DNA from: Patescibacteria group bacterium
Lineage (GTDB): Bacteria; Patescibacteriota; Saccharimonadia; UBA4664; SCTI01
Assembly (NCBI GenBank): GCA_004297735.1
Contig: SCTI01000002.1
Span: forward strand, 256,160 to 320,159
Direction: 5' to 3'
Length of the DNA stretch: 64,000 nucleotides
The number at the start of each line of letters is the position of its first letter. The first letter of the stretch is position 1. Shown piece by piece: positions 30,711 to 50,950 of the stretch. Below the pieces are notes generated by a model. The model did no database searches. It was not told the DNA's origin and saw only the letters and a program-made list of their open reading frames with translations. Position numbers and translations under genes: made by a program.

Positions 30711-30718
30711 CTCTACGC

Positions 30719-34820: not shown

Positions 34821-35258
34821 TTAGCCCGACGGACTACTGGCAATAACAAAGCCAACTATTGCTCCGGCGGTAATTGACACAACCAGACCAATAATGGCGT
34901 AGGTTATGGTATTTTTGGCACTTTGAATCTTTCCGCTATCCCCATTGGAGCTGGAGTATTTAATTCCACCAATAACAAGGTAAATTACCGATAGGGCACC
35001 GGCAACAGTCGACAACACACCCACAGCGGTTTTAGCAATATTACTTAAGCTAATAACAGGTATTCCGAGTGGGTCATGAGACCTCTCGCCAGCTGGCTTT
35101 TGCGAAGGGGAGTCGAGACAGTTTTTATAGTCTGCATCCTTACAGCCAGTGATGCTTTCGGCAGCCATGGTTGGCTGAAAAGAAAAACCGAGAGCTACGA
35201 TAAGAGTAGTCGCTAAAGTTAGGCCTGTTGCAAAACGCTTGAGCTTCATACTGATCAT
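34821..35258 (-). CDS. VirB2/TrbC-like pilin paralog 6
   Basis: Signal peptide ...TMA|AES. Cys pair CKDADYKNC. The core is LSTVAGALSVIYLVIGGIKYSSSNGDSGKIQSAKNTITYAIIGLVVSITAGAIVGFV. Confidence 0.6.
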   Translation of the reverse strand: MISMKLKRFATGLTLATTLIVALGFSFQPTMAAESITGCKDADYKNCLDSPSQKPAGERSHDPLGIPVISLSNIAKTAVGVLSTVAGALSVIYLVIGGIKYSSSNGDSGKIQSAKNTITYAIIGLVVSITAGAIVGFVIASSPSG

Positions 35259-35283: not shown

Positions 35284-35607
35284 CTAGTCGAACTGCCGAA
35301 CAAGGTATTCAACAATAAGGTATGAGCCGCTAGCCAAAATAAGACCTAGCACCGCGTAGGTGATGGTATTTTTAGCTTCGGAAACCTTTCTAGGGTCACC
35401 CTGCGAGGTGATGTATTGAATACCTGCCCAGGTCACAATAATAACGGCTACCACGCCGCACAGAGTAGTTATTAGTTGGATGGCGTTGGCCAACAAAATT
35501 CCAAAAACATCAATATTATCAAACTTAGGTGGATTGGACAGACCATTATATAGACTAGGCAGGACATCGCGGCGATCCTGATCGGCCAATTTAACGATTA
35601 AACTCAT
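35284..35607 (-). CDS. VirB2/TrbC-like pilin paralog 7 (no obvious signal peptide)
   Basis: The core is LCGVVAVIIVTWAGIQYITSQGDPRKVSEAKNTITYAVLGLILASGSYLIVEYL. The N-terminal 40 aa are hydrophilic, with no signal peptide. The start overlaps the stop of paralog 8 by 4 nt. Confidence 0.5.
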   Translation of the reverse strand: MSLIVKLADQDRRDVLPSLYNGLSNPPKFDNIDVFGILLANAIQLITTLCGVVAVIIVTWAGIQYITSQGDPRKVSEAKNTITYAVLGLILASGSYLIVEYLVRQFD

Positions 35608-36053
35608 CTAAACACCTTTGCCCCTTCTGGTAGCAGAAACTGCAGAATTGAGAACATAAGTAAGTATAGAACCAAACCAGTAACCGCTCCCTTTAATCTA
35701 TCTTTAGCCCCTTGAACCTGACTTGAGTCTCCGGCGGAGATAACATACTGGAATCCAGCTATCGCCACTATTAGTATGAGAATGAGGCCAAAAATAGCAC
35801 TAAACCAGCGAATGGCAGCAGATAAAAAGGCGAAGATAGGGTTTTGCGAACTGTCGCCAATGCACTCGTCGCCCAGGGTGTGGTTAGGGGTCCCGCTCTT
35901 ATCCCTGCCATTCCATATTGTACTAACCGGCACCCCACCTTTATCTTTACAGGCTTTTTGCAAATCGGTATCAGCATAGGCTGGCGCGCTAAAGCTGCCA
36001 AGCATTGTGACTAGCATGGCGGGAACCATAAGAATGAGAGCAAGTCGTTTCAT
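35604..36053 (-). CDS. VirB2/TrbC-like pilin paralog 8 (first gene of minus-strand array)
   Basis: Signal peptide ...APAYA|DTD. Cys pair CKDKGGV...DEC. A divergent core is FSAIFGLILILIVAIAGFQYVISAGDSSQVQGAKDRLKGAVTGLVLYLLMFSILQFLL. Confidence 0.55.
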   Translation of the reverse strand: MKRLALILMVPAMLVTMLGSFSAPAYADTDLQKACKDKGGVPVSTIWNGRDKSGTPNHTLGDECIGDSSQNPIFAFLSAAIRWFSAIFGLILILIVAIAGFQYVISAGDSSQVQGAKDRLKGAVTGLVLYLLMFSILQFLLPEGAKVFR

Positions 36054-36142
36054 CTGCGCCCATTCTATAAACCTAAAGCATATCCTGTCAAAGCTAACGC
36101 TTATTGAAGATGGTGCAATTCAGGTAGAAATCTATTAAACTT

Positions 36143-38602
36143 ATGCTTATGAAGGTGGGTATTTACAAAAGATTTTCAATCGCCCTTATTTTAATTGCAG
36201 CGACTGCTAGCCTTGGCTTGCCATTTTTTAGTGAACCTGCTCATGCCGCCAGTGAAAGCTACCTATTCTTTTTTAAGGATGGTGACAAGAGTGATGTTCA
36301 AAAAGGGCTAGACGGCAAAACGGACCTAGATCGAAACAACCTCACAAAAACAACCGTTTACATAAAGGATGGCATTTTTGGGGATAATAAGGTGCCTTTA
36401 TATTATGATTCCTCCGGATCATCGGTAGCAGGAAAGCCGCGTTATACAACCACTTATTACTGCTTTAACAATAAGCCGGTGACTTCACTGCCCCCAAATC
36501 AAGCAATCCCTTCTTACCAGACCATTGAATTAACTGCAACGATCACGGGGAGTCCAGATGTTACAAAGAGTGGTATAAGCTCTCATATTTTACCAGCAAA
36601 ACTAAGCTATGATGCCACTTATATAGGAACGGGTCCCGGTTCAGTCCCTCGCTCCTGTCTACCTTCAGCCGTCAGTCCGAGTAGTAGTCAAGGTAGTGTG
36701 GGCTTAGAAAACTATAATCAGCTTACGTCCGGCGGCAAAAGAGCGTGGGGTAGCCTACAGACGAGTACTGAGGCTAGTGCCGCCTCCAACCCAAGCACAA
36801 GTGCTGGCACTGGAGAGGATGACGACGAGCCAACCTGTCAATCCGAAGGCGGCGCATTAGCCTGGGTTTTCTGCCCAATGATTGAAATAATTCATGACAC
36901 TGTTGGCAAGATGATGAAGGATTTCATTCTTAACCAACTAGAATATGACCCCCTGAGCGTCGTACCGGGCGACGGAAATACAGCGGCAAATAATTTATAC
37001 AACGTGTGGGGCAACATCCGTGCTCTTGCCAATATACTGTTTGTGCTAATCTTCTTGTTCATTGTATTTGCTAACACGGTCGGTATGAATATCAATGCCT
37101 ACACCGTTAAAAAAATGCTGCCCCGTCTGGTCGCTGCGGTTGTACTGGTTCAGGTTTCATTTATTATCTGCTCCTTAGTTATTGATGCTGGAAATATAGC
37201 CGGACAAGGACTAGGTAGCCTTATAACCACCGCTCTTCCAGGCGCAGTAACCGAAGGGGCGGGTAGTGGAATTGGGGTAGGCTGGTCGGTTTTGAGTGGA
37301 GCTATTTTAGCCATTTTAGCGGTGGTCATCATTACAAAAATTGGTATTGCTGCGGTTCTTTTACTCGCATTAGGAGCGTTTTTCTCGGTTTTGTCGGTGG
37401 TTATAACGCTAATACTGCGCGACCTCATTATTAGCGTACTAGTAATTACCTCGCCACTTGCCTTTGCCGCCTGGGTCCTGCCAGGAACTGAGAAAATATT
37501 TAAAACTTGGTGGCGATTGTTTGTTCGCATAATTGTAATGTACCCAATGATTGTGCTGCTGTTTTCAGTGAGTAGCGTTCTGTCGGCAGCCAGCGCCGGT
37601 ACCACCGGAACGGCCGGTTTTGTTCAATCGGTTATCGCTGGAATATTCCCAATTATTGCCTTCTTTATGGTGCCATGGACCTTTAAGTGGGCCGGTGGCG
37701 CCATGGCAATGACGGCGGGTTATGTGGATGGCTGGACTAGCCGAGCAGGCGCGGCAACCGACAGAGGTCTTAGGAATAGCAAGCCCTACCAAGCTAACCA
37801 GCAGCGCCTCCAGGCACGGCGCGATTTAAGAAGCAGCCAGAAGCTCGGAAATCAATTAGGTAGCAGTAATGCTGCCAGGAGGGCCTGGGGAACTTTTATG
37901 GCTACGGGGGCGCCATTTGGGGGAAGGCTTAACCCAAATGGTGGATGGGGCAAAACAAGTCCTGCGGTTCAGCAAAAAGCCGATGACGCATTAAAGCAAG
38001 CCCGGGAAACCGCCCAAAATAATCTCCAGAACACCGGCACACAAGACCTTAAAGATAAGTTTGCAGCAACCGATGCTAGCGGCAAACTCAAGAACAAGAC
38101 AATGGGTGTGGCAGCAATTGGTGAGCTTGCAAAGCGGGGTCAGCTTACCAGTCAACATTTGGCGGCAATTCAAAAGACGTACGGAGCTGGCAGCCGTGAG
38201 GCAGGAATAGCCATGAAGTATGCACAGGGTCAGATGAGTGATAAGGCTAAAGATAATCACCCAATTTTGGCTTATGCGGACGCCGGCGCCAAGATTGATG
38301 CTGCCGGTAACTTTACCGAAATCAGCAAGAGCACTCATGACAGAATCACACAGAACACCTCTCCAAAATCGCTTGGTAGTCTGACTCAGCAGGGCCTGGC
38401 GGACATGCTGAACGCCACTGTTAAAGATGAAAAAGGCAACGACATGACATATACAGATAGTCGAGGAAATACTCGGAAGAGAAATGGCTTAGATGCTGTA
38501 GCCACGCACACCCTAAATGCCGCGGTTAATGATCCGAAGATTACTCGCAACATGCATCCAGACGTCCTTCGTGACCTTAGGGCTGAAGCGAGGAATCGCT
38601 AA
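36143..38602 (+). CDS. VirB6/TrbL-like polytopic membrane protein with large N- and C-terminal hydrophilic domains (paralog A)
   Basis: The 819-aa product has a signal peptide and a Ser/Thr-rich ~250-aa extracytoplasmic domain. The central block has at least 6 TM helices (ANILFVLIFLFIVFANTVGMN...LVAAVVLVQVSFIICSLVIDAGN...). The charged C-terminal tail is about 300 aa. It is transcribed divergently from the pilin array. Confidence 0.65.
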   Translation: MLMKVGIYKRFSIALILIAATASLGLPFFSEPAHAASESYLFFFKDGDKSDVQKGLDGKTDLDRNNLTKTTVYIKDGIFGDNKVPLYYDSSGSSVAGKPRYTTTYYCFNNKPVTSLPPNQAIPSYQTIELTATITGSPDVTKSGISSHILPAKLSYDATYIGTGPGSVPRSCLPSAVSPSSSQGSVGLENYNQLTSGGKRAWGSLQTSTEASAASNPSTSAGTGEDDDEPTCQSEGGALAWVFCPMIEIIHDTVGKMMKDFILNQLEYDPLSVVPGDGNTAANNLYNVWGNIRALANILFVLIFLFIVFANTVGMNINAYTVKKMLPRLVAAVVLVQVSFIICSLVIDAGNIAGQGLGSLITTALPGAVTEGAGSGIGVGWSVLSGAILAILAVVIITKIGIAAVLLLALGAFFSVLSVVITLILRDLIISVLVITSPLAFAAWVLPGTEKIFKTWWRLFVRIIVMYPMIVLLFSVSSVLSAASAGTTGTAGFVQSVIAGIFPIIAFFMVPWTFKWAGGAMAMTAGYVDGWTSRAGAATDRGLRNSKPYQANQQRLQARRDLRSSQKLGNQLGSSNAARRAWGTFMATGAPFGGRLNPNGGWGKTSPAVQQKADDALKQARETAQNNLQNTGTQDLKDKFAATDASGKLKNKTMGVAAIGELAKRGQLTSQHLAAIQKTYGAGSREAGIAMKYAQGQMSDKAKDNHPILAYADAGAKIDAAGNFTEISKSTHDRITQNTSPKSLGSLTQQGLADMLNATVKDEKGNDMTYTDSRGNTRKRNGLDAVATHTLNAAVNDPKITRNMHPDVLRDLRAEARNR

Positions 38603-38697
38603 AAGCCGACTTACCTTAACCCGCTTATCCTTGTATCTGTACACCAGATGGGATACGATGTTCTATTCGTCTTTGTATAAAGGTAGAGCAAATTATC

Positions 38698-41010
38698 ATG
38701 CAGACAATCAGGCGAGCAGTACTGGCGGCGCTGCTGGCATACACCATGCTGATCGGTATTATTGGACCGCTCAGCCAGATGTCGTTGACCGCTGGTGCCA
38801 AGCCCGCGGCTTTTAGCATTGGTAAGCCCGCCTACGCCGCCACCGCGCAAGAAGCATGTAGCTCTTATACGGGCAAAGATAAGTCTGCCTGCGAGTCCGG
38901 GTACAGGGGTGGCGATGACGGTAAGACCCGTTCTGAAACTTGTGACAGGTATGCCAATAGCAATCAAAGTGCCTTAGCCTGCTCGGCTGGATTTGATGCG
39001 GCGTTGATGTTGCACAATGGTAATCCAACCACCACTAGTTCAAATGGCGAGTCTGGCTCAACCGATCGCGAAGAGGGCTGCGCTAAGGCTCAGGGGCCAG
39101 CGGCTTGGTTTACCTGTCCAATGTTTGATCGCATCACCAACTTTATGGTTGAGGGCGGCCAAGAGATTATTAGGCAGTTCTTGGTAATTGAGCCGCTTAA
39201 GTTTGAGGGTCCAATGTATGACACCTGGAATACGGTTCGTACGCTTACAAATGTGCTGTTTGTATTGATCTTTTTGGTGGTTATATTTGGCAACACAGTC
39301 GGTATGAGCGCCTACCATATTCGCAGCATGATACCAAAGTTGGTTGTGGCGGTTTTACTGGTGCAAGCATCATTCTTAATCACCGCGGTAGGGGTTGATA
39401 TTGGCAACATTCTTGGAGCTGGGGTGGTTCAGTTGATATCGGGCGTAATGAACCATGGAGCGACCGTTAGCGGGCCCAGTGGTGACGCCTTAGCGGGTAA
39501 CCTCTTTTTAGCGGCCGGGTTGGTTGTTTTGGTAACAATCGGGTGGGAGATTGCCGGACCTTTGTTGCTATTGGTGTTTTTGAGCGCCATCGCCATGATT
39601 GTAACTTTAGCTTTTCGCTACTTTTTAATTGGCGTACTGATTGTTGTTTCTCCGCTAGCCTTCGCGGCGATGGTGTTGCCAGGAACAGAACAGTACTTTG
39701 ACCGCTGGCGCAGCACTTTTATTAGACTTATTTTAATGTACCCAATCATCATGGCGTTACTGGCTCTGGCCGCAAATGTAGGGGCATTAATGCCGGTGTC
39801 GGCTGACAGTGGTGCGTTTGGCGGCGATGCCGCCCAAGCCCTGGCGCCAATTGTAATTAAGGTCTTGGTTTTAATTGCCTGTTTTTCGGCCGTACCAATG
39901 ACCTTTAAGTGGGCCGGCGGTTTTATGGAGCTGGCTGCCAGTCGGATAGATGATATTCGCAAGGGCGGTCACCGCGCGGTTAGAGGTAGCGATGCGTGGA
40001 AGGCGGGGCGTCACCGTCAGGCTAGTCGGGCGGCCAACCGGGCCGATCGAGCGGCGGCGTTTGCCAACGAAGGAGCCGGTAAAAACATTTTTGGCCGCGA
40101 CAACTCGGCCAGCAGGTTCTTACAGGGGGCCTTGGTTGGAGTGGCTGGTGCGTCGGCAGGTGGCGGCCTGGATGGCGCTCTAACACGGGAACGACGCAAG
40201 CAAGCGGCCATTGGTAAAATTATGGATGACTTTAAGAGTCTGAACGTGTCGCGCGGAGACAAGCAAAAGCTGGTGGCGGCCCGGTCTAAGCGAGAGGTGC
40301 CGGCCAGCCTGCAGCCTTACTACTCAACACTTGGGCAAGCGGCGGCGTTTCGTTCGCTCAACAAGGATAAGGCCCGGGGTGAGGCGGCGAGCAGTGAGGC
40401 GGCTCTGGCGGCAATGGCGGTTACCGCCGAAGGAAAGCGGCGAGCCGAAGAGATTCGCAAGCTGGCCTACCAAGGTGAAGGCGGAGCAATGTATGGCGCC
40501 GACCCGGCTCTGGCTAATGGTGGTCTGGGCGGTAAACAAGCGCTTAAGCCCGGTTCTGGTAGCAAGATTAAATCGAGCGATGTAGCTGGCATTATGTCGA
40601 ATGTTGATTCGGTCCGCCGCAACTTTGGCCACAGCCTGAGTGGTGGGGTAGAAAAAGCCACCCGTCAAATGGGAGCGGTTAATGCAGCAGGCAAGGTAAC
40701 CGGCCCCGATTTTGTTGAGCAGCACTTGCAGGCCCACGGCCTGGTTGGCGGTCTGGCCACCGACTTAAGTGTTCAGGCCTTTAAGGACTCCTTAAAAGGT
40801 CGGCATTTCTCGGAGACATCGGGTGATGCTAGACGTGAGATGAAGGACGTATTAACCAATGCCGAAGCTGGCCGGCGAATTATGGTGCTGCAAAACTTTG
40901 AGGCGAGCTTGCGGGCAGCTGGTCGCACCACCGAAGCCAACGAGGTACAACGGCGCCATACCAATCTGCAAAACCTACGTAACGAAGCCAATACTTTAAT
41001 TACCGACTAA
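38698..41010 (+). CDS. VirB6/TrbL-like polytopic membrane protein (paralog B)
   Basis: The 770-aa product has the same architecture, and its TM block aligns with paralog A (TNVLFVLIFLVVIFGNTVGMS...LVVAVLLVQASFLITAVGVDIGN...WAGG). Confidence 0.65.
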   Translation: MQTIRRAVLAALLAYTMLIGIIGPLSQMSLTAGAKPAAFSIGKPAYAATAQEACSSYTGKDKSACESGYRGGDDGKTRSETCDRYANSNQSALACSAGFDAALMLHNGNPTTTSSNGESGSTDREEGCAKAQGPAAWFTCPMFDRITNFMVEGGQEIIRQFLVIEPLKFEGPMYDTWNTVRTLTNVLFVLIFLVVIFGNTVGMSAYHIRSMIPKLVVAVLLVQASFLITAVGVDIGNILGAGVVQLISGVMNHGATVSGPSGDALAGNLFLAAGLVVLVTIGWEIAGPLLLLVFLSAIAMIVTLAFRYFLIGVLIVVSPLAFAAMVLPGTEQYFDRWRSTFIRLILMYPIIMALLALAANVGALMPVSADSGAFGGDAAQALAPIVIKVLVLIACFSAVPMTFKWAGGFMELAASRIDDIRKGGHRAVRGSDAWKAGRHRQASRAANRADRAAAFANEGAGKNIFGRDNSASRFLQGALVGVAGASAGGGLDGALTRERRKQAAIGKIMDDFKSLNVSRGDKQKLVAARSKREVPASLQPYYSTLGQAAAFRSLNKDKARGEAASSEAALAAMAVTAEGKRRAEEIRKLAYQGEGGAMYGADPALANGGLGGKQALKPGSGSKIKSSDVAGIMSNVDSVRRNFGHSLSGGVEKATRQMGAVNAAGKVTGPDFVEQHLQAHGLVGGLATDLSVQAFKDSLKGRHFSETSGDARREMKDVLTNAEAGRRIMVLQNFEASLRAAGRTTEANEVQRRHTNLQNLRNEANTLITD

Positions 41011-41065
41011 CTCCTTACCGGTCGACAACCATAACCATTTTTTATAAGATAGGGTCAGGAGAGGT

Positions 41066-42010
41066 ATGGGCACATATAAGGTTCCACAGAACGTTGAGGC
41101 CGAGGATAAAATCCTAGGGCCGTTGTCGCTCAAGCAGTTCATTTATGCACTGATTGGCTTGGCGTGGGGCTTTTTAACCTTCGCGCTGTTTCGCCAGGTG
41201 ATTGTGCTGTGGGTTTTAATTGGTATTCCACCGGCACTTTTCTTATTGGCGCTTGGACTCTACCAGAAAGAGGATCAGCCGCTTGAGACCTTTGTAATTG
41301 CCATTTTCCAGTTCCTGGTTAGACCAAAGACCAGACTATGGCACAAGGAGCCAATTGCCGAGGTGTTTCGCCTAGAGCCACCCCCACCCAAGGCCGAGAT
41401 CGCTCACCGAGATCCACGCGAAGTTAGGGGACAGCTGCAGCGTTTAGCCGAGCTGGTTGATACACGAGGTTGGTCGGCCAAGCAGCCAGAGCTACAAGAG
41501 GCGGGGGACGAAGCTCCGGTAATCGACTTAATGGACCGGATTGGTGCCGGTGCGCTGGTGCCACAACAAACCCCTTCACTGGGTGGAGCAGCGGTACTAA
41601 CTCCAGCGCCAGCCGGCATGGTGGCGGCACCCGCTACTACCGACGCCCCCGCCGCACCTAATCCTGGCGACCCAGGTATTACCGAAGAAGATGACATCTT
41701 GGCCGAAGGTGGCCAGGTCAGCCAAAACCTTAACACGCTGATTCAAAACAGCGTTAAAAGTATGCGCGCCGAAGCGGTTGAACGCATGAAAAAACCGACC
41801 GCTCCGGTTGCAGCGAAAAAGGTTTCGCCCACCACTCCAAGCACAAGCGGATTAACAGCGCCTCTATCTGGTGATATACTTAAGCTAGCAACTGAAGGTG
41901 GAGATCTGACGGTGGCTCAAATTGCCGCTCAGGCTCACAGGAAACAAGATTTAGTAGAGGGTCAAACGGTACAAGTTCGGAATGGCAACACCACAACCAC
42001 AACCAGCTAA
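41066..42010 (+). CDS. VirB3-like membrane protein with long Pro/Ala-rich C-terminal region
   Basis: The N-terminal two-TM hairpin is LSLKQFIYALIGLAWGFLTF...VLWVLIGIPPALFLLALGLY. Its pattern and its position immediately upstream of VirB4 are VirB3-like. It overlaps the next ORF by 29 nt. Confidence 0.5.
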   Translation: MGTYKVPQNVEAEDKILGPLSLKQFIYALIGLAWGFLTFALFRQVIVLWVLIGIPPALFLLALGLYQKEDQPLETFVIAIFQFLVRPKTRLWHKEPIAEVFRLEPPPPKAEIAHRDPREVRGQLQRLAELVDTRGWSAKQPELQEAGDEAPVIDLMDRIGAGALVPQQTPSLGGAAVLTPAPAGMVAAPATTDAPAAPNPGDPGITEEDDILAEGGQVSQNLNTLIQNSVKSMRAEAVERMKKPTAPVAAKKVSPTTPSTSGLTAPLSGDILKLATEGGDLTVAQIAAQAHRKQDLVEGQTVQVRNGNTTTTTS

Positions 42011-42734
42011 AAAGGGCCCAAAAAAGAACGGGACCCAGGACACCATTTTAATTTCGGAGATCCGAGATGGAATTGTGGTGATGCGTGATGGCAGCTTACG
42101 GGCCGTAGTTATGGCCAGCGCAATTAACTTCGACTTAATGAGCCCTCAAGAACGCGACTCGGTTGAGTACGCCTACCAGAGCTTTTTAAACTCGCTTCAC
42201 TTTCCAGTTCAGATCCTAATTAAGTCACAGAAGCTCGATTTAGATAACTACATCGCCAAACTGGCTCAGCTGCGCCAAGACCAAGACAACGATTTGCTCG
42301 GTCTACTAATGGACGACTACATTGCCAACATTCAATCGCTGGTTGACGAGGTGAACATCATGGATAAGCAGTTCTATGTGGTGGTTCCGTTCTTCCCGCC
42401 AGCAATGACCAAGGTTAAGAAGGGTAATTTGGCTACCGGCTTAATGGGTGCCTTAAAACAGCAAGACGTAACCACCGTAAACGAAACCGATTTTGCGGCG
42501 TTTAAGGAAGAGTTAACCCAGCGGGTTCAAATGGTATCATCGGGACTCAGTCAGATGGGGGTACGCAACATTCCACTTAACACCCAGGAGCTAATTGAGC
42601 TTTATTACAGCAGCTACAACCCAGATGTGGCCCAAAACCAGCGCTTAACCGAAGCAGCGCAGCTGCAAACCGCCGCGGTCACCAAGGGTGAGGGGCAGGC
42701 TCCAACTCAACTAGCTCAAGGAGGACCTTTCTAG
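41982..42734 (+). CDS. VirB4/TrbE/CagE-family ATPase, N-terminal domain ORF (split gene or frameshift)
   Basis: The 250-aa product reads ...DTILISEIRDGIVVMRDGSLRAVVMASAINFDLMSPQERDSVEYAYQSFLNSL..., the conserved VirB4 N-terminal (CagE_TrbE_VirB) pattern. Its stop TAG overlaps the GTG of the next ORF by 1 nt, in a different frame. Confidence 0.7.
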   Translation: MATPQPQPAKKGPKKNGTQDTILISEIRDGIVVMRDGSLRAVVMASAINFDLMSPQERDSVEYAYQSFLNSLHFPVQILIKSQKLDLDNYIAKLAQLRQDQDNDLLGLLMDDYIANIQSLVDEVNIMDKQFYVVVPFFPPAMTKVKKGNLATGLMGALKQQDVTTVNETDFAAFKEELTQRVQMVSSGLSQMGVRNIPLNTQELIELYYSSYNPDVAQNQRLTEAAQLQTAAVTKGEGQAPTQLAQGGPF

Positions 42735-44644
42735 TGGGGCTTTTTGGTAAAAAACCAGATCAAGATCCGGTAGCGCTGGCCGAAGCCCAGCGGTTACGCG
42801 AACAACAAGAAGCCGAGGCGATCTACCGCCAGGGCATTGTGAGTCTACGCGACCTAATCGCGCCTCCATCACTCGAAATTGCTGGCGACCACCTGCGAGT
42901 AGGCACCCGGTTTGCTCGTACCTTATACGTGTACGGTTACCCGCGACAGATTTACACCGGCTGGTTGAGCCCAATCATCAACCTCGATGAGGTGCTCGAC
43001 ATCAGTATGTTTATCTACCCGGTTGAGAGCCAGGTGGTTCTAAACAACCTACGCCGAAAGGTGGGTCAGCTCGAAGCCAGCTACGCCATCAACCAAGAAA
43101 AGGGGAGGGTTCGTGACCCAGCCCTAGAGGCAGCCATTCTCGATGCCGAAGAACTACGTGACAAGCTGCAGGTGGGCGAGGAGCGATTCTTCCGCTTTGG
43201 ACTTTACGTTACCATCTACGGCGATAGCATGGATGAGATTAAAAATGTTCAACGAAAACTTGAGGGAATCTTTGGTCAGTCGCTGGTATACAGTAAGCCG
43301 GCCAGCATGCAAATGGAGCCAGGCTTTAACTCAACCCTGCCGATGGCTAACGACCAGCTTCAGGTTAGCCGCAACATGAACACCGGGGCGCTATCGACCA
43401 GCTTCCCATTTACCTCGGCCGAACTCAGCCACAACGAAGGCGTGCTTTACGGCGTCAACCGTCACAACAACGGCTTGGTTTTGTTTGACCGCTTTACGCT
43501 CGAAAACGCCAATATGGTGGTATTCGCTAAGTCCGGTGGCGGTAAGTCGTTTGCGGTTAAACTAGAGGCCTTGCGCAGCTTAATGATCGGTACCGAGGTA
43601 TTGGTAATCGACCCCGAAAACGAGTATCAAACCCTGTGCGAAGCGGTTGGTGGTAGCTATTTGCGACTGAGCCTAGCCTCACAGAACCGCCTTAACCCGT
43701 TTGATCTACCGCACGTACTCGATAGCGAGGATGCCGATAACGCCCTGCGGGCCAACATCATCACCCTGCACGGCCTGCTACGGCTAATGATGGGTGGTGA
43801 CGCCGCGCCGCTCAGCCCGGCCGAAGACGCCGACTTAGATGTGGCCATTATTAATACCTACGCAAAGGCCGGTATTACTAACGATCCGCTAACTCATAGC
43901 GCCACGCCACCAACCATGAATGACCTTCATAAAACTTTAAGTGAGATGAGTGGAAACGGTCCGTCATTGGCCCAGCGCTTACGCAAGTACACCACCGGCA
44001 CCTTTGCTGGAATCTTTAGTGAGCAGTCCAACGTTGATTTGTATAACAAGTTCGTGGTGTTTAATATTCGCGACCTCGAAGACGAGCTGCGCCCGGTCGG
44101 TATGTACATTGTGCTCAACTACATCTGGAACAAGGTTAAATCCGACAAGCGCCGGCGTATCTTGGTGGTTGATGAGGCCTGGCAGTTAATGAAGTATGAA
44201 GATTCGGCCAACTTTATGTTTAGTATTGCCAAGCGAGCCCGTAAATACCAGCTGGGCCTAACCACGATTTCGCAGGACGTTGATGACTTTTTGAGCTCAC
44301 GTATGGGTCGAGCGGTGGTCAGTAACTCTTCGCTACAACTTCTACTTAAGCAAGCGCCGTCTTCGGTCGACATTGTGGGTGAGACCTTTAAGCTGACTAG
44401 CGAGGAAAAGAGCCGGTTGACCAGTTTTCCGGTGGGCGAGGGGCTGTTCTTTGCCGGGTTGAACCATGTGGTTATGCGAATTTTGGCCTCCCAAACCGAG
44501 AGCCAGTTGATTACCACCAGCCCGCAACAGGTGGCAGCCCAGCAGGCGGCCCAGCAGTATCAACAGGAGGCCCAACAAGCGGCTCCTCCACCGGCAAGCC
44601 AACCACTGGAGACAGGAGAGCAGGAGCTAAACAGTGCCGGTTGA
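42734..44644 (+). CDS. VirB4-family ATPase, C-terminal NTPase domain ORF
   Basis: Walker A is FAKSGGGKSF and Walker B is RILVVDEAWQLM. The VirB4-type C-terminal motifs are present. The start is GTG. Confidence 0.85.
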   Translation: MGLFGKKPDQDPVALAEAQRLREQQEAEAIYRQGIVSLRDLIAPPSLEIAGDHLRVGTRFARTLYVYGYPRQIYTGWLSPIINLDEVLDISMFIYPVESQVVLNNLRRKVGQLEASYAINQEKGRVRDPALEAAILDAEELRDKLQVGEERFFRFGLYVTIYGDSMDEIKNVQRKLEGIFGQSLVYSKPASMQMEPGFNSTLPMANDQLQVSRNMNTGALSTSFPFTSAELSHNEGVLYGVNRHNNGLVLFDRFTLENANMVVFAKSGGGKSFAVKLEALRSLMIGTEVLVIDPENEYQTLCEAVGGSYLRLSLASQNRLNPFDLPHVLDSEDADNALRANIITLHGLLRLMMGGDAAPLSPAEDADLDVAIINTYAKAGITNDPLTHSATPPTMNDLHKTLSEMSGNGPSLAQRLRKYTTGTFAGIFSEQSNVDLYNKFVVFNIRDLEDELRPVGMYIVLNYIWNKVKSDKRRRILVVDEAWQLMKYEDSANFMFSIAKRARKYQLGLTTISQDVDDFLSSRMGRAVVSNSSLQLLLKQAPSSVDIVGETFKLTSEEKSRLTSFPVGEGLFFAGLNHVVMRILASQTESQLITTSPQQVAAQQAAQQYQQEAQQAAPPPASQPLETGEQELNSAG

Positions 44645-47552
44645 GGAACGTGATCGTCAAATTGCCGGTGGGGCATCTGACGATGCTGCGGCAGCGAAAC
44701 GAGCAGCTAAAGCCGAGGAGGCTCGTGAACTTGGTTTATATATTCCAGAAGATTTTGTCGATAATCCACAGAATCCAGGTAGCAACACTGGTATTGCAAA
44801 GCCCGATAGCACTGAAGAAAATCTAAAGGGTAGTGATGACTCCCAAATGCGGCGGGTTGGCCGAATGCGCGGTCTGGCTGACCGGGCGGTCACGCAGTTT
44901 AGGGGACTGAGCGGTAATCGGCGGGTGGTTGCCGCCGTACTGGGTGGCGGCGGAATTGTTGGCATTATGATAGCGCTGTTTTTAACCTTTGCTCAGTTTA
45001 AGCTCATTCACATGATGGAGAATATGGCTGATCATTTATTTTCGCGCAACCAGCACATGTTTGAGGTTCGCCGTGACGTTTATATGCGCGAGTTTTACAA
45101 TAACTACCTTGGTGCGCCGGATAGCAACATCGACGATAGCACCGCCACTCTCAGCCAACAGATTATGCGTCGAATGAAGGATGGGTTAGAGCCTCGGCTA
45201 AACGAAAAGTACAAGGTTGAGGTTAAAGCTGATCCAGCTAGCCCGCGCTACAAACGCGTAAAGTTTACCGACAAGCGGACCGGCCAAGTGACCGAGTTTA
45301 GTACCGCGTTTACTAATAGTGAGGACCGGCGCCGTGCCCGGGAGTTCAATAAGCAGGTTAGCCGTGAAATAACCCGAGACGATGGCTGGCTCAAGCGAGT
45401 CTGGTTTAAGGGGCGGATGACTAGAATAACCGGCACTAAATGGAACTGGCTTGATCCAATCAAGCAGCCATACAATAAAGCCAAGTTGGCCGCCTCCAAT
45501 CAAGTAGCAAAGTTTCTTTTAAGCGACCAGAGTAAGGCGTCTGGACTGCGTAAGCAGTTGATTTCAAAACTCTTTGGCGACACCGATATTGAGGATAGCG
45601 TGAATTCAGAAATTAGCACGGCCGCGAGCGCCGATGACGCCCAAAAACTTTTATCTGAAAAAATAACCTCGGCGGCCTCAAAGGGGGTTAGCACTGTCGG
45701 TTTGGCGGTATTGGCGGTTCAGGTTGGTTGTTCAATCGACGACCTATTATCTAAAGACACCTTCAATAAGGCTGTGCGACAAAAGATGGAGATTGAGTAT
45801 ATGACTCAATACGCCTCAATGATTAGTAAATCTAGTCAGCTAAAACTCGGTAAAACCGACGGCAATACGGTTAATGCCCACATGGCTATGATGACCTTTA
45901 CCGATAAAAACGGTAGGCCCCATGATGTGGCGGAAAGTAATAATTACCGCCGGGCTACCGGAGAAAAGGTCGACTACCACCCAACCGATAACTGCAATGA
46001 TTATTCTGAACTATGTGAAGCAAAGCTACCCGGTAAAGCCACCAGCGACCACGCCATTGCTGGTAACTTTTTGGCGGGAGCAGGAGCGGCTAGCTCAGCC
46101 TACAACTCCACCGCTTACCAGGTTGCAGCTAAGGTTATACCGTTACCTGGAATTCCAGGCAGTTTTGGTACCGATGCGGTTTGTTACGCCTGGGATCACG
46201 GAATAAAGCAGATATCAAATGGTGTTGCTGACGTTGTTGATCGCTTACTTAGCGCAGTACCAGTTGTACGTACTGTGTGGGGGGAGATTAAGGGAGCTAG
46301 CGCAGATGTTGTCGGCGCAATTAATGATAAGTTTATGGGCTGGATAGCGGTGTCGGTGGTTGATGCGGATACCACGGGTCCATTCTTAGCTAGCGCCACT
46401 GGCGCAGGCGGTAGCCTAGCGGCGGCTTCAGCGGCTGGATCACCGGTAGGAACCGATGCGACCGGAGATGACAGCCAGGCTTGTCACAATAAATCAGCCG
46501 AGGAAAAAGCCCAAGATGATAGCTTTTGCGGCAAACCATTAAGTCGAGATCAAATCGCCCAGACAGATCGTGTGATTGCGCAGGAAGAGTATGAAGACGC
46601 TAAAAACGCTCCTTTCATGACCAAGATTGCCTCGCTCGACACACCTTACTCTCTAGCTAGCAAAGTGGTGGACGCAATCCCTGCCTCACCCCAAACTCTT
46701 ACCGATCGCACCAGCCAGTTTATTATTGCTGCCACCAATCCACACTCGCTAATGAAAGCCCTGCGTAACCTACCTAACGCGCTGTCGCCACAAGCCATAG
46801 CCTCCCAGGGCCAGGGTTCGCTGGTAGTAAACAGTGATGGCACCGATCAGTACAACACCCGCATTTACGGTCATACCGAAGAAGATCTACAAAAACCCCT
46901 CGATTCACCCGGCTTAGAGAATCTTGATAGGAATACGGGGTGTAGTATTATCGCTGGACTAAAAGGTAAAAAGGACAAGCATGGTGATCCAATAGAACTG
47001 CCTGAGAAATGCGAGATAGATGGTCAAAGTGGAAACTACAGTGTTAATAGCCCAGATACGCCAGACAACCCTGGAGATGTTACGGGTGATGCTAAAACTA
47101 TTGCCCAACACATACTTGACGAAGCTGATAAAGATAATCCAAAAATAATTTTTAACCCTACTATGTATAACTCCCAAGATGAGGCGGATGGATCTACCCC
47201 CCGTAAAAATGTTGAGCAAATTGCCCACGGCCAAAAAGCAAAAACCACTACCACCTGTGGGGGTAGCCGCGGGGGAGCAGTACCGCCAGTATCCGAAGTT
47301 GTACTTAACACAAGCCTACTTAAGTTTATACTTGAGCTTAGTGGTAGAACCACCATCCATATAAACGCACTGGCCGGGCAATGCCACCATGATACATCGT
47401 CAAATCATTACAAGGGCAAGGCTATTGACTTTGGTTGTCCATTAAATGCAAGTGAGGCTGATGCAGTGGGGCGAAAATACGGAATATCGGACGGTACGGG
47501 TGAGTACTGCTCAAATACATCACACTACCACTACTCGGTCGGGGGTCACTAG
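44634..47552 (+). CDS. large bitopic membrane protein with C-terminal LAS/M15-type zinc peptidase motif (putative peptidoglycan hydrolase)
   Basis: The 972-aa product has a single TM (VVAAVLGGGGIVGIMIALFLTF) near residue 100. The C-terminus reads ...HINALAGQCHHDTSSNHYKGKAIDFGC...HYHYSVGGH, carrying the SxHxxGxAxD motif of the M15 family. Confidence 0.6.
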   Translation: MPVEERDRQIAGGASDDAAAAKRAAKAEEARELGLYIPEDFVDNPQNPGSNTGIAKPDSTEENLKGSDDSQMRRVGRMRGLADRAVTQFRGLSGNRRVVAAVLGGGGIVGIMIALFLTFAQFKLIHMMENMADHLFSRNQHMFEVRRDVYMREFYNNYLGAPDSNIDDSTATLSQQIMRRMKDGLEPRLNEKYKVEVKADPASPRYKRVKFTDKRTGQVTEFSTAFTNSEDRRRAREFNKQVSREITRDDGWLKRVWFKGRMTRITGTKWNWLDPIKQPYNKAKLAASNQVAKFLLSDQSKASGLRKQLISKLFGDTDIEDSVNSEISTAASADDAQKLLSEKITSAASKGVSTVGLAVLAVQVGCSIDDLLSKDTFNKAVRQKMEIEYMTQYASMISKSSQLKLGKTDGNTVNAHMAMMTFTDKNGRPHDVAESNNYRRATGEKVDYHPTDNCNDYSELCEAKLPGKATSDHAIAGNFLAGAGAASSAYNSTAYQVAAKVIPLPGIPGSFGTDAVCYAWDHGIKQISNGVADVVDRLLSAVPVVRTVWGEIKGASADVVGAINDKFMGWIAVSVVDADTTGPFLASATGAGGSLAAASAAGSPVGTDATGDDSQACHNKSAEEKAQDDSFCGKPLSRDQIAQTDRVIAQEEYEDAKNAPFMTKIASLDTPYSLASKVVDAIPASPQTLTDRTSQFIIAATNPHSLMKALRNLPNALSPQAIASQGQGSLVVNSDGTDQYNTRIYGHTEEDLQKPLDSPGLENLDRNTGCSIIAGLKGKKDKHGDPIELPEKCEIDGQSGNYSVNSPDTPDNPGDVTGDAKTIAQHILDEADKDNPKIIFNPTMYNSQDEADGSTPRKNVEQIAHGQKAKTTTTCGGSRGGAVPPVSEVVLNTSLLKFILELSGRTTIHINALAGQCHHDTSSNHYKGKAIDFGCPLNASEADAVGRKYGISDGTGEYCSNTSHYHYSVGGH

Positions 47553-47554
47553 GC

Positions 47555-49306
47555 GTGAGAAAGCTTTGCTATATATTTATATGCATTATTACCCTACTTA
47601 CAGTACCTATGCAGGCTTTTGCCGCTGAAAGTATTTCCGATGAAGACTCCGTGTTTTACGGCGCAGAGTGGTATGACCCAAATGGTACATGTTCCGGTAG
47701 TGGTAGTGCTGTTTTTGGACCAGGAACGCTGCCAAGCTCTGTACCTGAACCCTATAATCGGATATTTACCGCAGCCGCCAGGAAATTTAATATTTCTGCA
47801 GCATTTCTTGCTGCAGTGTTTTACGGTGGAGAACACGGGAATAGCTTCCCCGAACCCCCTCCACCATATGGCCACGGTGCACCATGGGCTACTTCTTGGG
47901 CTGCTGCTCAAGGACCTTTTCAATTCCTAGAATCAACATGGCGTAGCTATAAGGTTGACGGAAATGGGGATGGTCGAGAGGATATTCAAGATCTAACAGA
48001 TGGTGCTTTTGGTGGAGCTAAGTACCTTGCGGCACTAGGAGCCAAAAACACCACTAGTGAAGCTAAGCTTCGCAAAGCCGCCGCCGATTACAATGGCATA
48101 CATGATCCAAGCGCATCATATCCAAGTAATGTATGGGCTGCTTACCAGAAGTTTTCTACAGGCTCTCCATCACCCAGCGCCACCTCTTCGCCCTCTGGAG
48201 CCACGCCAGATCCAACCGGTGGTGGTGAGGGGTCGGTGTATATTTTAGGAGATTCATTAATGGTGGGTTCCTACTATGAAGGTAATAAGTATCTAAAAGG
48301 CTTTTTAGATACTAAAAACATCAACGCTTATGTTGATGCGTCGGTTGGCCGGGGAATAAAAAGCGGGGGGTCGGATCCATCAAATAATAGGCCTGCTGCA
48401 GAGAAATCAGGAATCGATGCAGTTGAAATCGACAAAGATGTTATTAAAGATGCCGGAACTATTGTGATTGAGCTTGGGACAAATAAAAGCAGTTCTACTA
48501 ATGCCTTTAAGCAGGATATGAAGGATTTGATTAATAAAGTCAAAAGTATAAATGGGGATGCAAAAATATATTGGGTTAATATTGTATCGGAAAATGACTC
48601 CGATTATACGACATACAATACAATCATTGAACAAGTCACATCTGACGAAAATATTTATTTTATTGATGAAAAATCCAAAAATATTAATTTAGACGGATCA
48701 AAATTACACCCAACCGATGATGGTTATAAAAAATACTCACAAACAATCGCCGATGCAGTTGGTGCAGCTGGTAGTCAAAATGCGGCTGAGTGTACTAGTA
48801 CGGGTGGTGTTGGGGCATCTGGGTATAAAAACCCTCTTAGGGACATTAGGGGTCTCACCCGAATGCGTATTGATATGGGTGTAGATTATGGTGGTAGTGG
48901 TCCTTTTTATGCAATCGGTAATGGTAAAGTAGTGTCAGCTACAACAAGTAGCGGCTGGCCGGGAGGGAATTGGGTTAGCTACCAGCTAACAGATGGGCCG
49001 GCAAAAGATAAGTATGTATATGTGGCGGAAAATTGCAGTATAAAAGTTAGCGTCGGTGATGAGGTTACCTCAGACACGGTTTTATGTGAATTACATGACT
49101 CATACCCCTACTCAGAAACTGGTTGGGCAGTGCCGCCAGACCAAGGGACTACTGCTGCTGCTCATAATGTATATGTTGAGGGTGATGTGACTGCATATGG
49201 TGTTAACTTCTCCGATCTAATGAAGAGTATTGGGGCACCACCAGGTGTAGGTAATCGTAATGCTGCGGTTGGTAGCTTACCTGATGGGTGGCCATCTTGG
49301 AGGTAA
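47555..49306 (+). CDS. secreted multidomain cell-wall hydrolase: lytic transglycosylase (SLT) + SGNH/GDSL + M23-like domain
   Basis: A signal peptide is followed by the SLT motifs ...GGEHGNSF..., AQGPFQFLESTW and AADYNGI. Next is the GDSL block YILGDSLMVGS. The C-terminus reads RIDMGVDYGGSGPFYAIGNGKVV, M23-like but lacking the HxxxD histidine, so it may be degenerate. Confidence 0.75.
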   Translation: MRKLCYIFICIITLLTVPMQAFAAESISDEDSVFYGAEWYDPNGTCSGSGSAVFGPGTLPSSVPEPYNRIFTAAARKFNISAAFLAAVFYGGEHGNSFPEPPPPYGHGAPWATSWAAAQGPFQFLESTWRSYKVDGNGDGREDIQDLTDGAFGGAKYLAALGAKNTTSEAKLRKAAADYNGIHDPSASYPSNVWAAYQKFSTGSPSPSATSSPSGATPDPTGGGEGSVYILGDSLMVGSYYEGNKYLKGFLDTKNINAYVDASVGRGIKSGGSDPSNNRPAAEKSGIDAVEIDKDVIKDAGTIVIELGTNKSSSTNAFKQDMKDLINKVKSINGDAKIYWVNIVSENDSDYTTYNTIIEQVTSDENIYFIDEKSKNINLDGSKLHPTDDGYKKYSQTIADAVGAAGSQNAAECTSTGGVGASGYKNPLRDIRGLTRMRIDMGVDYGGSGPFYAIGNGKVVSATTSSGWPGGNWVSYQLTDGPAKDKYVYVAENCSIKVSVGDEVTSDTVLCELHDSYPYSETGWAVPPDQGTTAAAHNVYVEGDVTAYGVNFSDLMKSIGAPPGVGNRNAAVGSLPDGWPSWR

Positions 49307-50699
49307 TAAGCGAGACGTGATGATAAGAAGAGTAATAACATACATAATTGCTACTACTATTGTTTTAGTGGTTGGGGTGTTTATTTATAACTTTTTCACA
49401 ACCGGATCAATAAAAATAACTACAAATGATCCAGAAAACATTATTACACTCACACCGGTTTCAGATGATGATGATATTAAAGCCAAAGATGCCGAAATAA
49501 AACAGGGTAAAGGTAGTTTAAGTGTCACGGTTCATACGGGTAAATATATTGCATCGGTCGACGGCGGGTCTATTGCAATAACAAAAATAATCAACCTATC
49601 ATCGCATAAGACGATTAGGGAATATTTAAATCCTCAAAAAACAAGCGCCATAGAGCCAGTTGCTAATGAGCCTGGTGTAAATGTATCTGCTGACGACTCT
49701 TCACTTGTATACGTCAATTCCCTTAATAACACACTAAATCGCATATCATCATCAAATAACATTATAAAGTTAAGCGATGTTAAGTTTAAGGTTATTAAGT
49801 GGGCTAACCCAAACTTTGGTTTTGGCCAGGGTGTAGACAACAGTTTTTATATTATTAAAAATGGATCTGTATTAAAATTATCAACTCCGGCTGATGTGGG
49901 TGATAGTAATATAGTAAACTTTGATGTGTCGCCAGATGAAAAAATATATTTTTCGTGGAACGGTAAAATTTATAAATATTCAGGTAAAGAATTTATTGAG
50001 ATATATAAATCAAAAACATCACACCCCAACCTTATAGCGTCGGTAAATGGTGTGATTGCTTTAGATAGTAGTGGTGACGCCCGTGCTGGAAACACTGAGC
50101 CAATAATGGCTTTTATTAAAAATAAAGGTGTTAAAAAGCAAAAAATTGAAGCCTATACCGGATCTTGGTCACCCAGCGGTAAGTACCTTGCCACCAGTAG
50201 TGATTCTGGTAGTAATATTTATGATGATAACCTTAGGGAGGTTGCGGTCATACCTAGCCAAAATATCAACTCTCCTACATGGTTAAACGATTACACGTTA
50301 TTATATGGTATTCAAGATGGTCTATGGTCGTATAATATCCAAAATCAGCAGGCTCACAAGATTGCCAATATACCTCTAGCTGAGCCAATATCGGAAATAC
50401 AGATTAGTCATAATAAAGAGTATGCCTATGTGGTGGTTGGCGAAGAAGGAACCGCTTCCATTAAAAGAATTGGTATTAATAACCAAACAACCCCTAAGGT
50501 TGTTTTAGCACTACAAAACCTTTTACCATTAACCTTAAGTCAATCTACTATACAACTAATAAATTTTTCTGGTAAGCCGGCGGTTGTTGTTAAGCCTATA
50601 CCCGGAATACCCCAAACAAACTATCAGCAAGAAGCTCAAAATGAACTTAAATTAGACGGCATAGATCTTAATCAAATAGAGTTAAGGTTTGGTGGTTAG
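49260..50699 (+). CDS. membrane-anchored beta-propeller-like protein (PD40/TolB-like repeats), AT-rich gene
   Basis: There is an N-terminal TM anchor (ITYIIATTIVLVVGVFIYNFF). The start may instead be ATG 49320 (MIRRV). PD40-like strands are present (SWSPSGKYLATSSDSG). The GC content, about 33%, is far below the window average. Confidence 0.5.
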   Translation: MLRLVAYLMGGHLGGNKRDVMIRRVITYIIATTIVLVVGVFIYNFFTTGSIKITTNDPENIITLTPVSDDDDIKAKDAEIKQGKGSLSVTVHTGKYIASVDGGSIAITKIINLSSHKTIREYLNPQKTSAIEPVANEPGVNVSADDSSLVYVNSLNNTLNRISSSNNIIKLSDVKFKVIKWANPNFGFGQGVDNSFYIIKNGSVLKLSTPADVGDSNIVNFDVSPDEKIYFSWNGKIYKYSGKEFIEIYKSKTSHPNLIASVNGVIALDSSGDARAGNTEPIMAFIKNKGVKKQKIEAYTGSWSPSGKYLATSSDSGSNIYDDNLREVAVIPSQNINSPTWLNDYTLLYGIQDGLWSYNIQNQQAHKIANIPLAEPISEIQISHNKEYAYVVVGEEGTASIKRIGINNQTTPKVVLALQNLLPLTLSQSTIQLINFSGKPAVVVKPIPGIPQTNYQQEAQNELKLDGIDLNQIELRFGG

Positions 50700-50950
50700 T
50701 AGTTAATATTTATAACTAAGTGTTTCACCTTATTAAATTTACCCTTAATCTCAACCTGCATAAACCTTAACTCACTAGCGATACTAGCGCTTTTTGTGGT
50801 AACTCGTAATACGCCATCGTTGATACTAACGGCTCGACATTTACCAGGAAATACCTTGTCCAGATAGCATTGAACCTCACTTAAAGTATCACCGCGCTCT
50901 AAGCCCAGCTGACTGGCTTTGCGCTGTAGGTAATCATTTATACCATCCAT
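50696..50950 (-). CDS. DUF721-domain protein (DciA-like), downstream of recF
   Basis: The product is about 85 aa when started at the internal ATG (MDGINDYLQRKASQLGL...), with an ...LRVTTKSASIASELRF... pattern. Its position after recF is the canonical DUF721 location. Confidence 0.55.
   Translation of the reverse strand: MDGINDYLQRKASQLGLERGDTLSEVQCYLDKVFPGKCRAVSINDGVLRVTTKSASIASELRFMQVEIKGKFNKVKHLVININY

Follow-up and report, generated by a model that had tools for sequence, protein, structure and literature searches.

The closest described relatives of the locus reported here are the chromosomal type IV secretion systems (T4SSs) of Saccharibacteria. In TM7x, a region with VirB4, VirB6, PrgI, GntX (at the position of comF in our locus) and 4-6 small proteins with Sec signals was found to be conserved across Saccharibacteria (McLean 2020, PMC7427843). 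The genes SEML1_0006-0019 of Southlakia epibionticum are essential for epibiotic growth by transposon sequencing; this cluster resembles a Gram-positive conjugative T4SS, has essential pilins, is without recognisable coupling or relaxase proteins, and was proposed to serve protein export or 'an alternative capacity' (Wang 2023, Cell, PMC10633639). Phylum-wide, an MPF_FATA-related VirB4 clade was described together with TrsD, PrgI, VirB6, near-absent relaxases, proximity to dnaA and VirB2 arrays of 2-11 genes with ~25% mean identity (Quinonero-Coronel 2025, Microb Genom, PMC12102498). Overview articles (a FEMS review of 2025 and a PNAS perspective of 2024) take the system as established but functionally unexplained; its role has been called 'completely unknown', with nucleotide uptake as a suggestion (PMC11665869). 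Here we analyse a stretch of 64,000 nucleotides (the window) from a Patescibacteria group bacterium of the Saccharimonadia (GenBank assembly GCA_004297735.1, contig SCTI01000002.1, positions 256,160 to 320,159 of the forward strand). Its T4SS locus is very probably the conserved chromosomal system of Saccharibacteria (the 'Patescibacteria clade'), a non-conjugative positional ortholog of SEML1_0006-0019 with a proposed function as pilus or conduit.

The window holds an intact VirB2/B3/B4/B6 module with wall hydrolases, fixed beside oriC and with no DNA-processing partners nearby. Composition, synteny, oriC proximity, the missing relaxase and type IV coupling protein (T4CP), and the reading as a repurposed T4SS are already in print (2020, 2023, 2025). 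No new kind of system is added here, and our observations on a hydrolase cassette and on pilin origin are minor leads (on host range and on system origin, respectively). Conserved across Saccharibacteria and essential in the one species tested, the system may be how ultrasmall epibionts tap their hosts.

The operon runs on the plus strand from 36143 to 50699 as eight consecutive open reading frames (ORFs), the coordinates of which all agree with those of the original prediction. The same genes were obtained from an independent gene call on the same DNA (Logan assembly of SRR8426595), and from PrgI onward the gene junctions measure -29 to +13 nt. Its members are:

36143-38602, + strand: extended VirB6/TrbL-like protein a, 819 aa, paralog of the next gene (PF19590 TrbL_3 in precomputed annotation; transmembrane (TM) map)
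38698-41010, + strand: extended VirB6/TrbL-like protein b, 770 aa, EPO04_03250, paralog of the 819-aa protein
41066-42010, + strand: PrgI/VirB3-like protein, 314 aa, with long C-terminal extension (PF12666, 1e-13; TM hairpin at 24-67)
41982-42734, + strand: TrsD-like protein, a free-standing VirB4 N-terminal domain, 250 aa (gene caller: start 42081, 217 aa; NF041427 TrsD, 2.6e-9)
42734-44644, + strand: VirB4 ATPase, 636 aa (NF045971 conju_CD1110, 369.8 bits; PF19044, 3.8e-28)
44634-47552, + strand: single-pass 972-aa protein, EPO04_03270 (TM at 96-128; C-terminal ~160 aa LAS/M15-type peptidase-like)
47555-49306, + strand: secreted wall hydrolase, 583 aa (signal peptide; SLT_2 PF13406 and Lipase_GDSL_2 PF13472 above cutoffs; M23-like part sub-threshold)
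49260-50699, + strand: membrane-anchored Ig-like and seven-blade beta-propeller protein, 479 aa (AlphaFold2 (AF2) mean pLDDT 94.3)

Divergent from the operon across an 89-bp spacer, eight small ORFs form an array on the minus strand, from 36053 down to 32673:

35604-36053, - strand: T4SS pilin paralog 8, 149 aa, first gene of the array (PF18895, 1.5e-8)
35284-35607, - strand: T4SS pilin paralog 7, 107 aa, no obvious signal peptide (PF18895, 9.3e-11)
34821-35258, - strand: T4SS pilin paralog 6, 145 aa (PF18895, 2.5e-9)
34349-34855, - strand: T4SS pilin paralog 5, 168 aa (PF18895, 3.7e-14)
33981-34352, - strand: T4SS pilin paralog 4, 123 aa (PF18895, 2.8e-13; TrbC, 1.1e-5)
33583-33981, - strand: T4SS pilin paralog 3, 132 aa (PF18895, 7.6e-13)
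33183-33590, - strand: T4SS pilin paralog 2, 135 aa (gene caller: 129 aa; PF18895, 4.5e-12; TrbC, 4.5e-5)
32673-33104, - strand: VirB2/TrbC-type T4SS pilin paralog 1, 143 aa (PF18895, E 1.1e-10; NF045849 Mbov_0395 pilin-like, 30 bits)

To compare the locus with its relatives, species-representative genomes were scanned, which gave at least 591 relatives; the best 80 (nearly all labelled Saccharibacteria/Saccharimonadales) were retained and their gene order was mapped by tblastn and hidden Markov models (HMMs). A recurrent order is observed: comF, hsp20, the minus-strand pilin array, one or two VirB6-like genes, PrgI, TrsD and VirB4, followed by a 780-1300-aa protein, a 390-1040-aa hydrolase, one or two smaller genes and then recF, dnaN and dnaA. 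The distance from VirB4 to recF is at most 10 kb in 34 of the 38 loci with full flanks. Conservation declines along the locus: identity to related loci is ~69% for VirB4 (65-95% across species), ~52% for TrsD, ~29% for PrgI and ~28% for the VirB6 core, and only ~10-20% for the two proteins after VirB4, which are recognisable mainly by position. Since 26 of the 31 loci that cover the whole upstream part have a single VirB6-like gene and their arrays count 5-9 pilins (most often 6), the window, with two VirB6 paralogs and eight pilins, stands at the rich end.

The comparison with Saccharibacteria that the original prediction had called for gives the same picture in published data, as the gene order of the window equals that of Tables S1/S2 of Wang 2023 and the agreement extends to hsp20, comF and tRNA-Ser at one flank and to recF-dnaN-dnaA at the opposite flank (PMC10633639). 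S. epibionticum ML1 thus shares slot and order from tRNA-Ser through dnaA, and also two extended VirB6-like genes, a ~1000-aa protein ending in a Hedgehog/DD-peptidase (M15) domain, a subsequent multidomain lysozyme-type hydrolase, small exported protein(s), and a cluster without coupling protein or relaxase. The differences concern the pilins (six against eight in the window), the hydrolase (two lysozyme-like domains and a cysteine protease against SLT_2, GDSL_2 and an M23-like part) and the last gene(s), which are PEGA/prealbumin-like in S. epibionticum whereas the window has the Ig and beta-propeller protein. Furthermore, S. epibionticum carries the non-essential, NTF2-like SEML1_0012 between its VirB6 genes, where the window has a 95-nt gap (38603-38697). 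PDB entry 4EC6 is, we presume, the VirB8-like domain of TraM from pIP501. The NTF2-like annotation of SEML1_0012 was made against ECOD e4ec6D1 (Wang 2023 Table S2), and a 2025 survey found no structural VirB8 homolog in the S. epibionticum proteome (PMC12102498).

The window likewise agrees with the Patescibacteria-clade T4SS in its MPF_FATA-related VirB4, TrsD, PrgI, VirB6, tandem VirB2 array, missing relaxase and proximity to dnaA/dnaN/rnpA (PMC12102498). In that survey VirB1-like hydrolases were poorly associated with virB4, whereas in the Saccharimonadia loci studied here a hydrolase gene is fixed two genes after virB4 in essentially all cases, with shuffled domains.

The sequence of VirB4 is identical (100%) to that of a protein from an NCBI Patescibacteria metagenome-assembled genome and 76-95% identical to thousands of Saccharimonadia homologs. 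Its Walker A (AKSGGGKS) and Walker B (ILVVDEAW) motifs are both intact. The 636-aa ORF covers positions 178-731 of the CD1110 model and passes its curated cutoff (369.8 against 325 bits), by which it is assigned to the monoderm CD1110/MPF_FATA-type family. The 250-aa ORF in front of it, which overlaps virB4 by 1 nt and is TraC-like (PF26593) in precomputed annotation, covers model positions 2-104; no sequence similarity exists between the two. Given that they cover complementary parts of the model and that the same split recurs in 79 of the 80 related loci, TrsD and VirB4 are a conserved pair and not a broken gene. A frameshift was hence rejected as explanation for a VirB4 in two ORFs; the two ORFs themselves had been correctly predicted.

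The two VirB6-like proteins are paralogous (36% identity over 353 aa, E 2e-61). Both have a signal/TM1 segment and a block with five or more hydrophobic segments, and in both the N- and C-terminal regions are long and hydrophilic. In live Pfam and NCBIfam scans their sole match was that of the 770-aa protein to Bacteroides TraJ (20.6 bits). Precomputed annotations assign the 819-aa protein and most homologs to PF19590 TrbL_3, while the live Pfam-A scan returned no PF19590 match for the VirB6-like sequences at E<=0.1; this family is probably missing from the live Pfam copy. Paralogy, TM map and precomputed tables together bear out the two VirB6/TrbL-like proteins of the original prediction, as the PrgI match does for its VirB3-like protein.

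All eight ORFs of the array match PF18895 T4SS_pilin, and several match TrbC/VirB2 as well. Pairwise identity among them is 19-48% (mean 32%): a C-terminal two-helix hairpin is conserved, and the variable N-terminal parts contain cysteines. The eight-pilin array predicted at first is thus present, but its members are VirB2-like T4SS pilins; type IV pili were considered for the array and rejected, all eight proteins being of the VirB2/TrbC type. The pilins also match, at 29-38 bits and under the 40-bit cutoff in all eight cases, the 'Mbov_0395 pilin-like' family (NF045849) of Mycoplasma integrative and conjugative elements (ICEs).

Downstream of VirB4 the operon encodes three exported or anchored proteins. 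The N-terminal ~795 aa of the 972-aa protein are conserved in close relatives, and it sits at what we take to be the position of PrgK in pCF10. The full protein has no family match in Pfam/NCBIfam scans, and a word-indexed search gave 7 full-length homologs. Its C-terminus carries the zinc-ligand motifs Hx6D and HxH (SxHxxGxAxD...HxH), which are invariant in a small subfamily. Single-sequence searches of PDB, Pfam and PHROGs with this part gave no match. In hhalign, however, the subfamily aligns to VanY-positive C-termini of positional orthologs with 75% probability (E 2.5e-5), and the profile matches in PDB almost solely Hedgehog N-domains and a phage L-Ala-D-Glu peptidase, though weakly (E 0.03-0.9). 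An M15/LAS fold is thereby moderately supported; of the originally predicted bitopic giant with M15-type motif, the single TM segment and the motif hold, and the fold is to be worded with that reserve. The C-terminus of SEML1_0007 was placed in the same fold class (Hedgehog/DD-peptidase; Wang 2023, PMC10633639).

In the 583-aa protein a lytic transglycosylase is followed by an SGNH/GDSL esterase (motifs GDS232 and GTN) and a degenerate M23-like domain. Here the prediction of an SLT, SGNH and M23-like hydrolase stands for the first two domains. Residues 442-514 score 17.4 bits for M23, against a Pfam gathering threshold of 28.7, and both HxxxD and HxH are absent; the segment looks catalytically dead and may be a degenerate LytM-type regulatory domain. 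For the last protein (479 aa), the predicted membrane-anchored beta-propeller is borne out by the AF2 model, which has a TM helix at the N-terminus, an Ig-like sandwich, a propeller with seven blades and, at the C-terminus, a small domain. In Foldseek this model matches WD40 propellers (1e-10 to 1e-11) and Lp49. The family counts 396 cluster representatives; as homologs start at ORF residue ~21-23, the protein itself probably begins at 49320 (459 aa).

This 3' part of the operon appears to be exchangeable. The window is collinear with two close relatives (VirB4 identity 95% and 91%) except in one sharply bounded region, which differs completely among the three:

~47010-50760, no strand assigned: replaceable wall-hydrolase cassette; homology to the two closest relatives breaks off at about residue 795 of the 972-aa protein and returns at dciA
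Cassette of the window: giant-protein C-terminus M15-like; next gene SLT/SGNH/M23-like hydrolase; last gene Ig and beta-propeller
Cassette of the relative with 95% VirB4 identity: C-terminus GDSL and M23; next gene C39-like peptidase; last gene a 145-aa protein
Cassette of the relative with 91% VirB4 identity: C-terminus beta-lactamase-like; next gene glucosaminidase and CHAP hydrolase; last gene a 440-aa protein

A census of the two positions after VirB4 in 47-54 related loci shows VanY, M23, GDSL, CHAP, phage lysozyme, SLT and amidase 2/3 domains in many combinations, and also NlpC/P60, C39, glucosaminidase, GDPD and EEP domains. Within the cassette, the GC content falls from ~50% (window) to 34-38% at 48200-50600; the low-GC stretch opens at the Ser/Pro linker that joins the SLT and SGNH domains in the 583-aa hydrolase and takes in the entire beta-propeller gene. 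No direct or inverted repeats bounding the cassette were found. As the core is strongly conserved and the 3' cassette is swapped between near relatives, we infer that the swapping may be an adaptation to host wall chemistry. So sharp a boundary between relatives with 91-95% identical VirB4 is a minor addition to the published picture, and a modest lead on host range.

A second lead concerns the origin of the system. The textbook order of a CD1110/MPF_FATA-type conjugative T4SS is that of pCF10 prgH-prgL. The nearest plasmid-borne VirB4s (39-42% identity) lie in two loci that both carry homologs of the window pilins. On the conjugative-looking plasmid NZ_CP108778 of Embleya sp. NBC_00896 a pilin homolog, a VirB6-like protein, PrgI, VirB4 (42% identical to ours) and then a wall hydrolase follow each other; the window shares this order, in agreement with the Gram-positive-type T4SS first proposed. 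The Embleya pilin ORF (7547-8077 of the extracted locus) is absent from the PLSDB gene table and is matched by an HMM built from the window pilins at 1.4e-13. Directly after VirB4, however, Embleya has a T4CP and a replication-relaxation protein where the window has the hydrolase-tailed 972-aa protein, and its system is plasmid-borne whereas that of the window is chromosomal and adjoins oriC. The 898-kb replicon NZ_CP062975 of Pontibacillus sp. ALD_SL1 (Bacillota) carries two pilin homologs (3.5e-17 and 4.8e-14; 7486-8398 of the extracted locus), a large membrane protein, a PrgI-like ORF, TrsD (1.4e-28), a CD1110-family VirB4 (39% identity) and a 1050-aa DD-metalloendopeptidase, and as in the window neither a T4CP nor a relaxase appears in the annotation of the 12 kb on each side. 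It differs in that the organism is a free-living Firmicute, the locus lies beside flagellar genes and without oriC linkage, and only two pilins are present.

Gram-positive T4SSs have been stated to be without VirB2 homologs (PMC12102498; also FEMS review 2025). Given the pilin homologs in Embleya, Pontibacillus and the Mycoplasma ICE family, this statement, taken for monoderm T4SSs outside the Patescibacteria, is contradicted and needs to be qualified. The similarities suggest a monoderm lineage with pilins as the source of the Saccharibacteria system, T4CP and relaxase having been lost or replaced in that lineage. Pilins in the nearest Gram-positive plasmid loci are again a minor addition, with a modest lead on where the system came from.

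For the window itself, the conjugation genes are missing as predicted. VirB4 is the sole T4SS-type P-loop ATPase, the other Walker A proteins being an ABC ATPase, RecF and DnaA, and no VirD4/TcpA, relaxase, VirB11 or integrase family was found among the called genes of the 64 kb. The original prediction had held that a coupling protein and relaxase just outside the window would make this an ordinary ICE; none is present in the ~7 kb beyond either end. To the left (~7.7 kb) lie truB, rpsO, pnp, udg, RNase J and, at ~6 kb, an FtsK with the canonical FtsK 4TM/alpha/gamma domains; to the right (~7.1 kb) are surface-polysaccharide and unknown genes. The Embleya T4CP and replication-relaxation protein, used as phmmer queries against every stop-to-stop ORF in the window, in its flanks and in 82 Saccharibacteria loci (1.56 Mb), gave no match even at E<=10, and the positions that follow VirB4 in 47-54 related loci are likewise without T4CP, relaxase, VirB11 and integrase.

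An ordinary ICE or conjugative island, with coupling protein, relaxase and oriT outside the window, might be argued for given the conjugative monoderm (CD1110) type of VirB4, the T4CP and replication-relaxation protein directly after VirB4 in the nearest plasmid relative (Embleya, 42% identity) and the five tRNA genes located 2-8 kb upstream of the pilin array. VirD4-like genes are moreover common in Patescibacteria genomes, far from virB4 (PMC12102498). Yet the slot from comF/hsp20 to dciA-recF-dnaN-dnaA is fixed in 34 of the 38 species loci with full flanks, the surroundings are housekeeping genes, and neither integrase nor T4CP nor relaxase was found in the 64 kb and ~7 kb on each side. Relaxases are known from just 103 Patescibacteria genomes and merely 15 relaxase genes are near virB4, and in S. 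epibionticum the distant T4CP homolog is non-essential while the T4SS is essential (PMC12102498). Such an element is thus very improbable: since the locus is chromosomal and adjoins dciA-recF-dnaN-dnaA, it is not an ICE, which we rejected on conserved synteny and on the lack of mobility genes in window and flanks. Less probable still, to the point of being negligible, is a decaying remnant, in which the split VirB4 and the missing partners would mark a pseudogenised conjugation system. Several canonical components are indeed missing, and the M23-like domain is without metal ligands. Against this, the two-ORF VirB4 is shared by 79 of 80 loci, species retain 65-95% identity in VirB4, every ORF is intact and the junctions between them are coupled, the Walker motifs are preserved, and the S. 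epibionticum orthologs are essential (PMC10633639). A T4SS repurposed away from conjugation, as first proposed, is in line with the fixed position beside the oriC genes, with the missing T4CP and relaxase, and with the published consensus.

How such a system would work can be outlined as follows. The eight Sec-exported VirB2-like pilins would be inserted into the membrane. They would be pulled out again and polymerised where the VirB6-like proteins, PrgI/VirB3 and the VirB4 ATPase, the latter with an N-domain provided in trans by TrsD, form a platform. By cutting peptidoglycan, the 972-aa and the secreted 583-aa proteins would let the filament or channel cross the wall of the epibiont and would attack that of the host. 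SGNH enzymes can de-O-acetylate the substrate before cleavage; here the esterase could strip O-acetyl groups and so aid the lytic transglycosylase. The anchored beta-propeller may be a surface adaptor. The outcome would be a pilus or conduit where epibiont and host meet, with no need for a coupling protein or relaxase.

Several points weigh against this picture. The orthology with the SEML1 genes is drawn from gene order, sizes and domain annotations, the M15/LAS assignment from a motif and weak profile matches, and the host wall as hydrolase target from the variability of the hydrolases. No operon protein has a VirB8-like/NTF2 sequence-family match in the Pfam and NCBIfam scans, and a VirD4-like gene elsewhere in the genome is plausible.

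Within a repurposed T4SS, what passes through it, and in which direction, can be read in several ways. The minimal VirB2/VirB4/VirB6 composition comes closest to the archaeal Ced importer. Like the window system, archaeal Ced and the Helicobacter ComB DNA importer operate without relaxase or coupling protein, and Ced comprises just a VirB4-like ATPase, a VirB6-like membrane protein and VirB2-like pilins (PMC12102498). The window VirB4 scores 40.9 bits for the CedB family (NF041017; cutoff 700) against 369.8 for CD1110, and by these scores the resemblance to Ced is one of function only, not of family membership. ComB was invoked as precedent in the PNAS perspective (PMC11665869), and in S. epibionticum ComEC-dependent competence is dispensable whereas the T4SS is essential (FEMS review 2025). 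Uptake from the host in a Ced- or ComB-like manner is a possibility that we put forward tentatively. Its more specific form, in which a VirB2 filament driven by VirB4 passes through the hydrolase-opened host wall and draws in host macromolecules, be they nucleic acids or other building blocks, independently of ComEC, with the cassette setting which hosts can be tapped, is speculative and must be called doubtful.

Alternatively, the system could be a T4CP-independent protein exporter, similar to Bordetella Ptl or Brucella VirB, that delivers Sec-exported array proteins or hydrolases as effectors onto or into the host. Known exporters without T4CP possess both VirB11 and an outer-membrane core, which are absent here; the array proteins are VirB2-type pilins and not toxin subunits, and a candidate effector paired with an immunity gene was not found in the window. 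The operon does encode secreted, fast-diversifying enzymes, Ptl and Brucella VirB do work without a T4CP (PMC12102498), the small Sec-signal array was likened to ptx/ptl by McLean 2020 (PMC7427843), and Wang 2023 wrote that the system 'may instead export proteins' (PMC10633639). Altogether we regard export as somewhat unlikely. A third option is an organelle for contact and adhesion only, whose VirB2 pilus holds the epibiont to its host while nothing is translocated. VirB2, B3, B4, B6 and a hydrolase are the pilus-biogenesis subset of conjugative systems, which counts for this option, and the presence of several divergent pilins points to a surface that varies. Adhesion alone would, however, hardly explain so large and diversifying a set of wall hydrolases, and attachment and motility of Saccharibacteria have already been assigned to type IV pili (PMC10633639, PMC11665869), so that contact without transport seems unlikely.

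The wider setting of the locus is conserved and mostly housekeeping. The left part of the window encodes polA, rpoD, dnaG, groES/EL, valS, femAB-like genes, a Mur ligase and tsaD. Immediately after the operon come dciA, recF, dnaN, dnaA, rnpA, yidC and jag, and then cell-surface polysaccharide genes. The pilin array is flanked at 31359-32609 by comF (a ComFC-type phosphoribosyltransferase) and hsp20, which were found in 17 and 31, respectively, of 80 loci whose flanks extend far enough. Both genes also flank the array of S. epibionticum, where comF is non-essential (Wang 2023, PMC10633639), and the linkage of comF may for that reason be a matter of synteny only.

Regulatory signals are less distinct. 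Promoter-like and terminator motif counts do not exceed those of shuffles, and DnaA boxes are not significantly enriched across the window (15 against 12 expected), with two of them just upstream of dnaA. The best sigma-70-like promoter match of the 19.5-kb region, a consensus match only, is:

36062-36091, - strand: TTGACA-18-TAGAAT, 11/12, in the 89-bp divergent spacer upstream of the pilin array

Some further features of the region were noted. Four tRNA-Ser genes (anticodons GGA, GCU, CGA and UGA) and one tRNA-Arg gene are located at 12827-12916 and 28570-30808; 4 of the 5 lie within 2.3 kb just upstream of comF, without associated integrase or repeats. Between pgi and groEL, 1.2 kb (16298-17520) are without credible ORF and have a GC-rich core at ~16480-17160. 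This segment has no Rfam match even at E<=1 and, whichever strand is taken, folds far better than its shuffled versions (z -6.6 and -5.5), which makes it a candidate for an unannotated structured RNA. Finally, to the right of the window, at a distance of ~0.5-3.2 kb, a 900-aa ORF without Pfam family lies amid the surface-polysaccharide genes; its 175-aa neighbour has weak similarity to a podophage fibre protein (Gp80, 4.5e-4).

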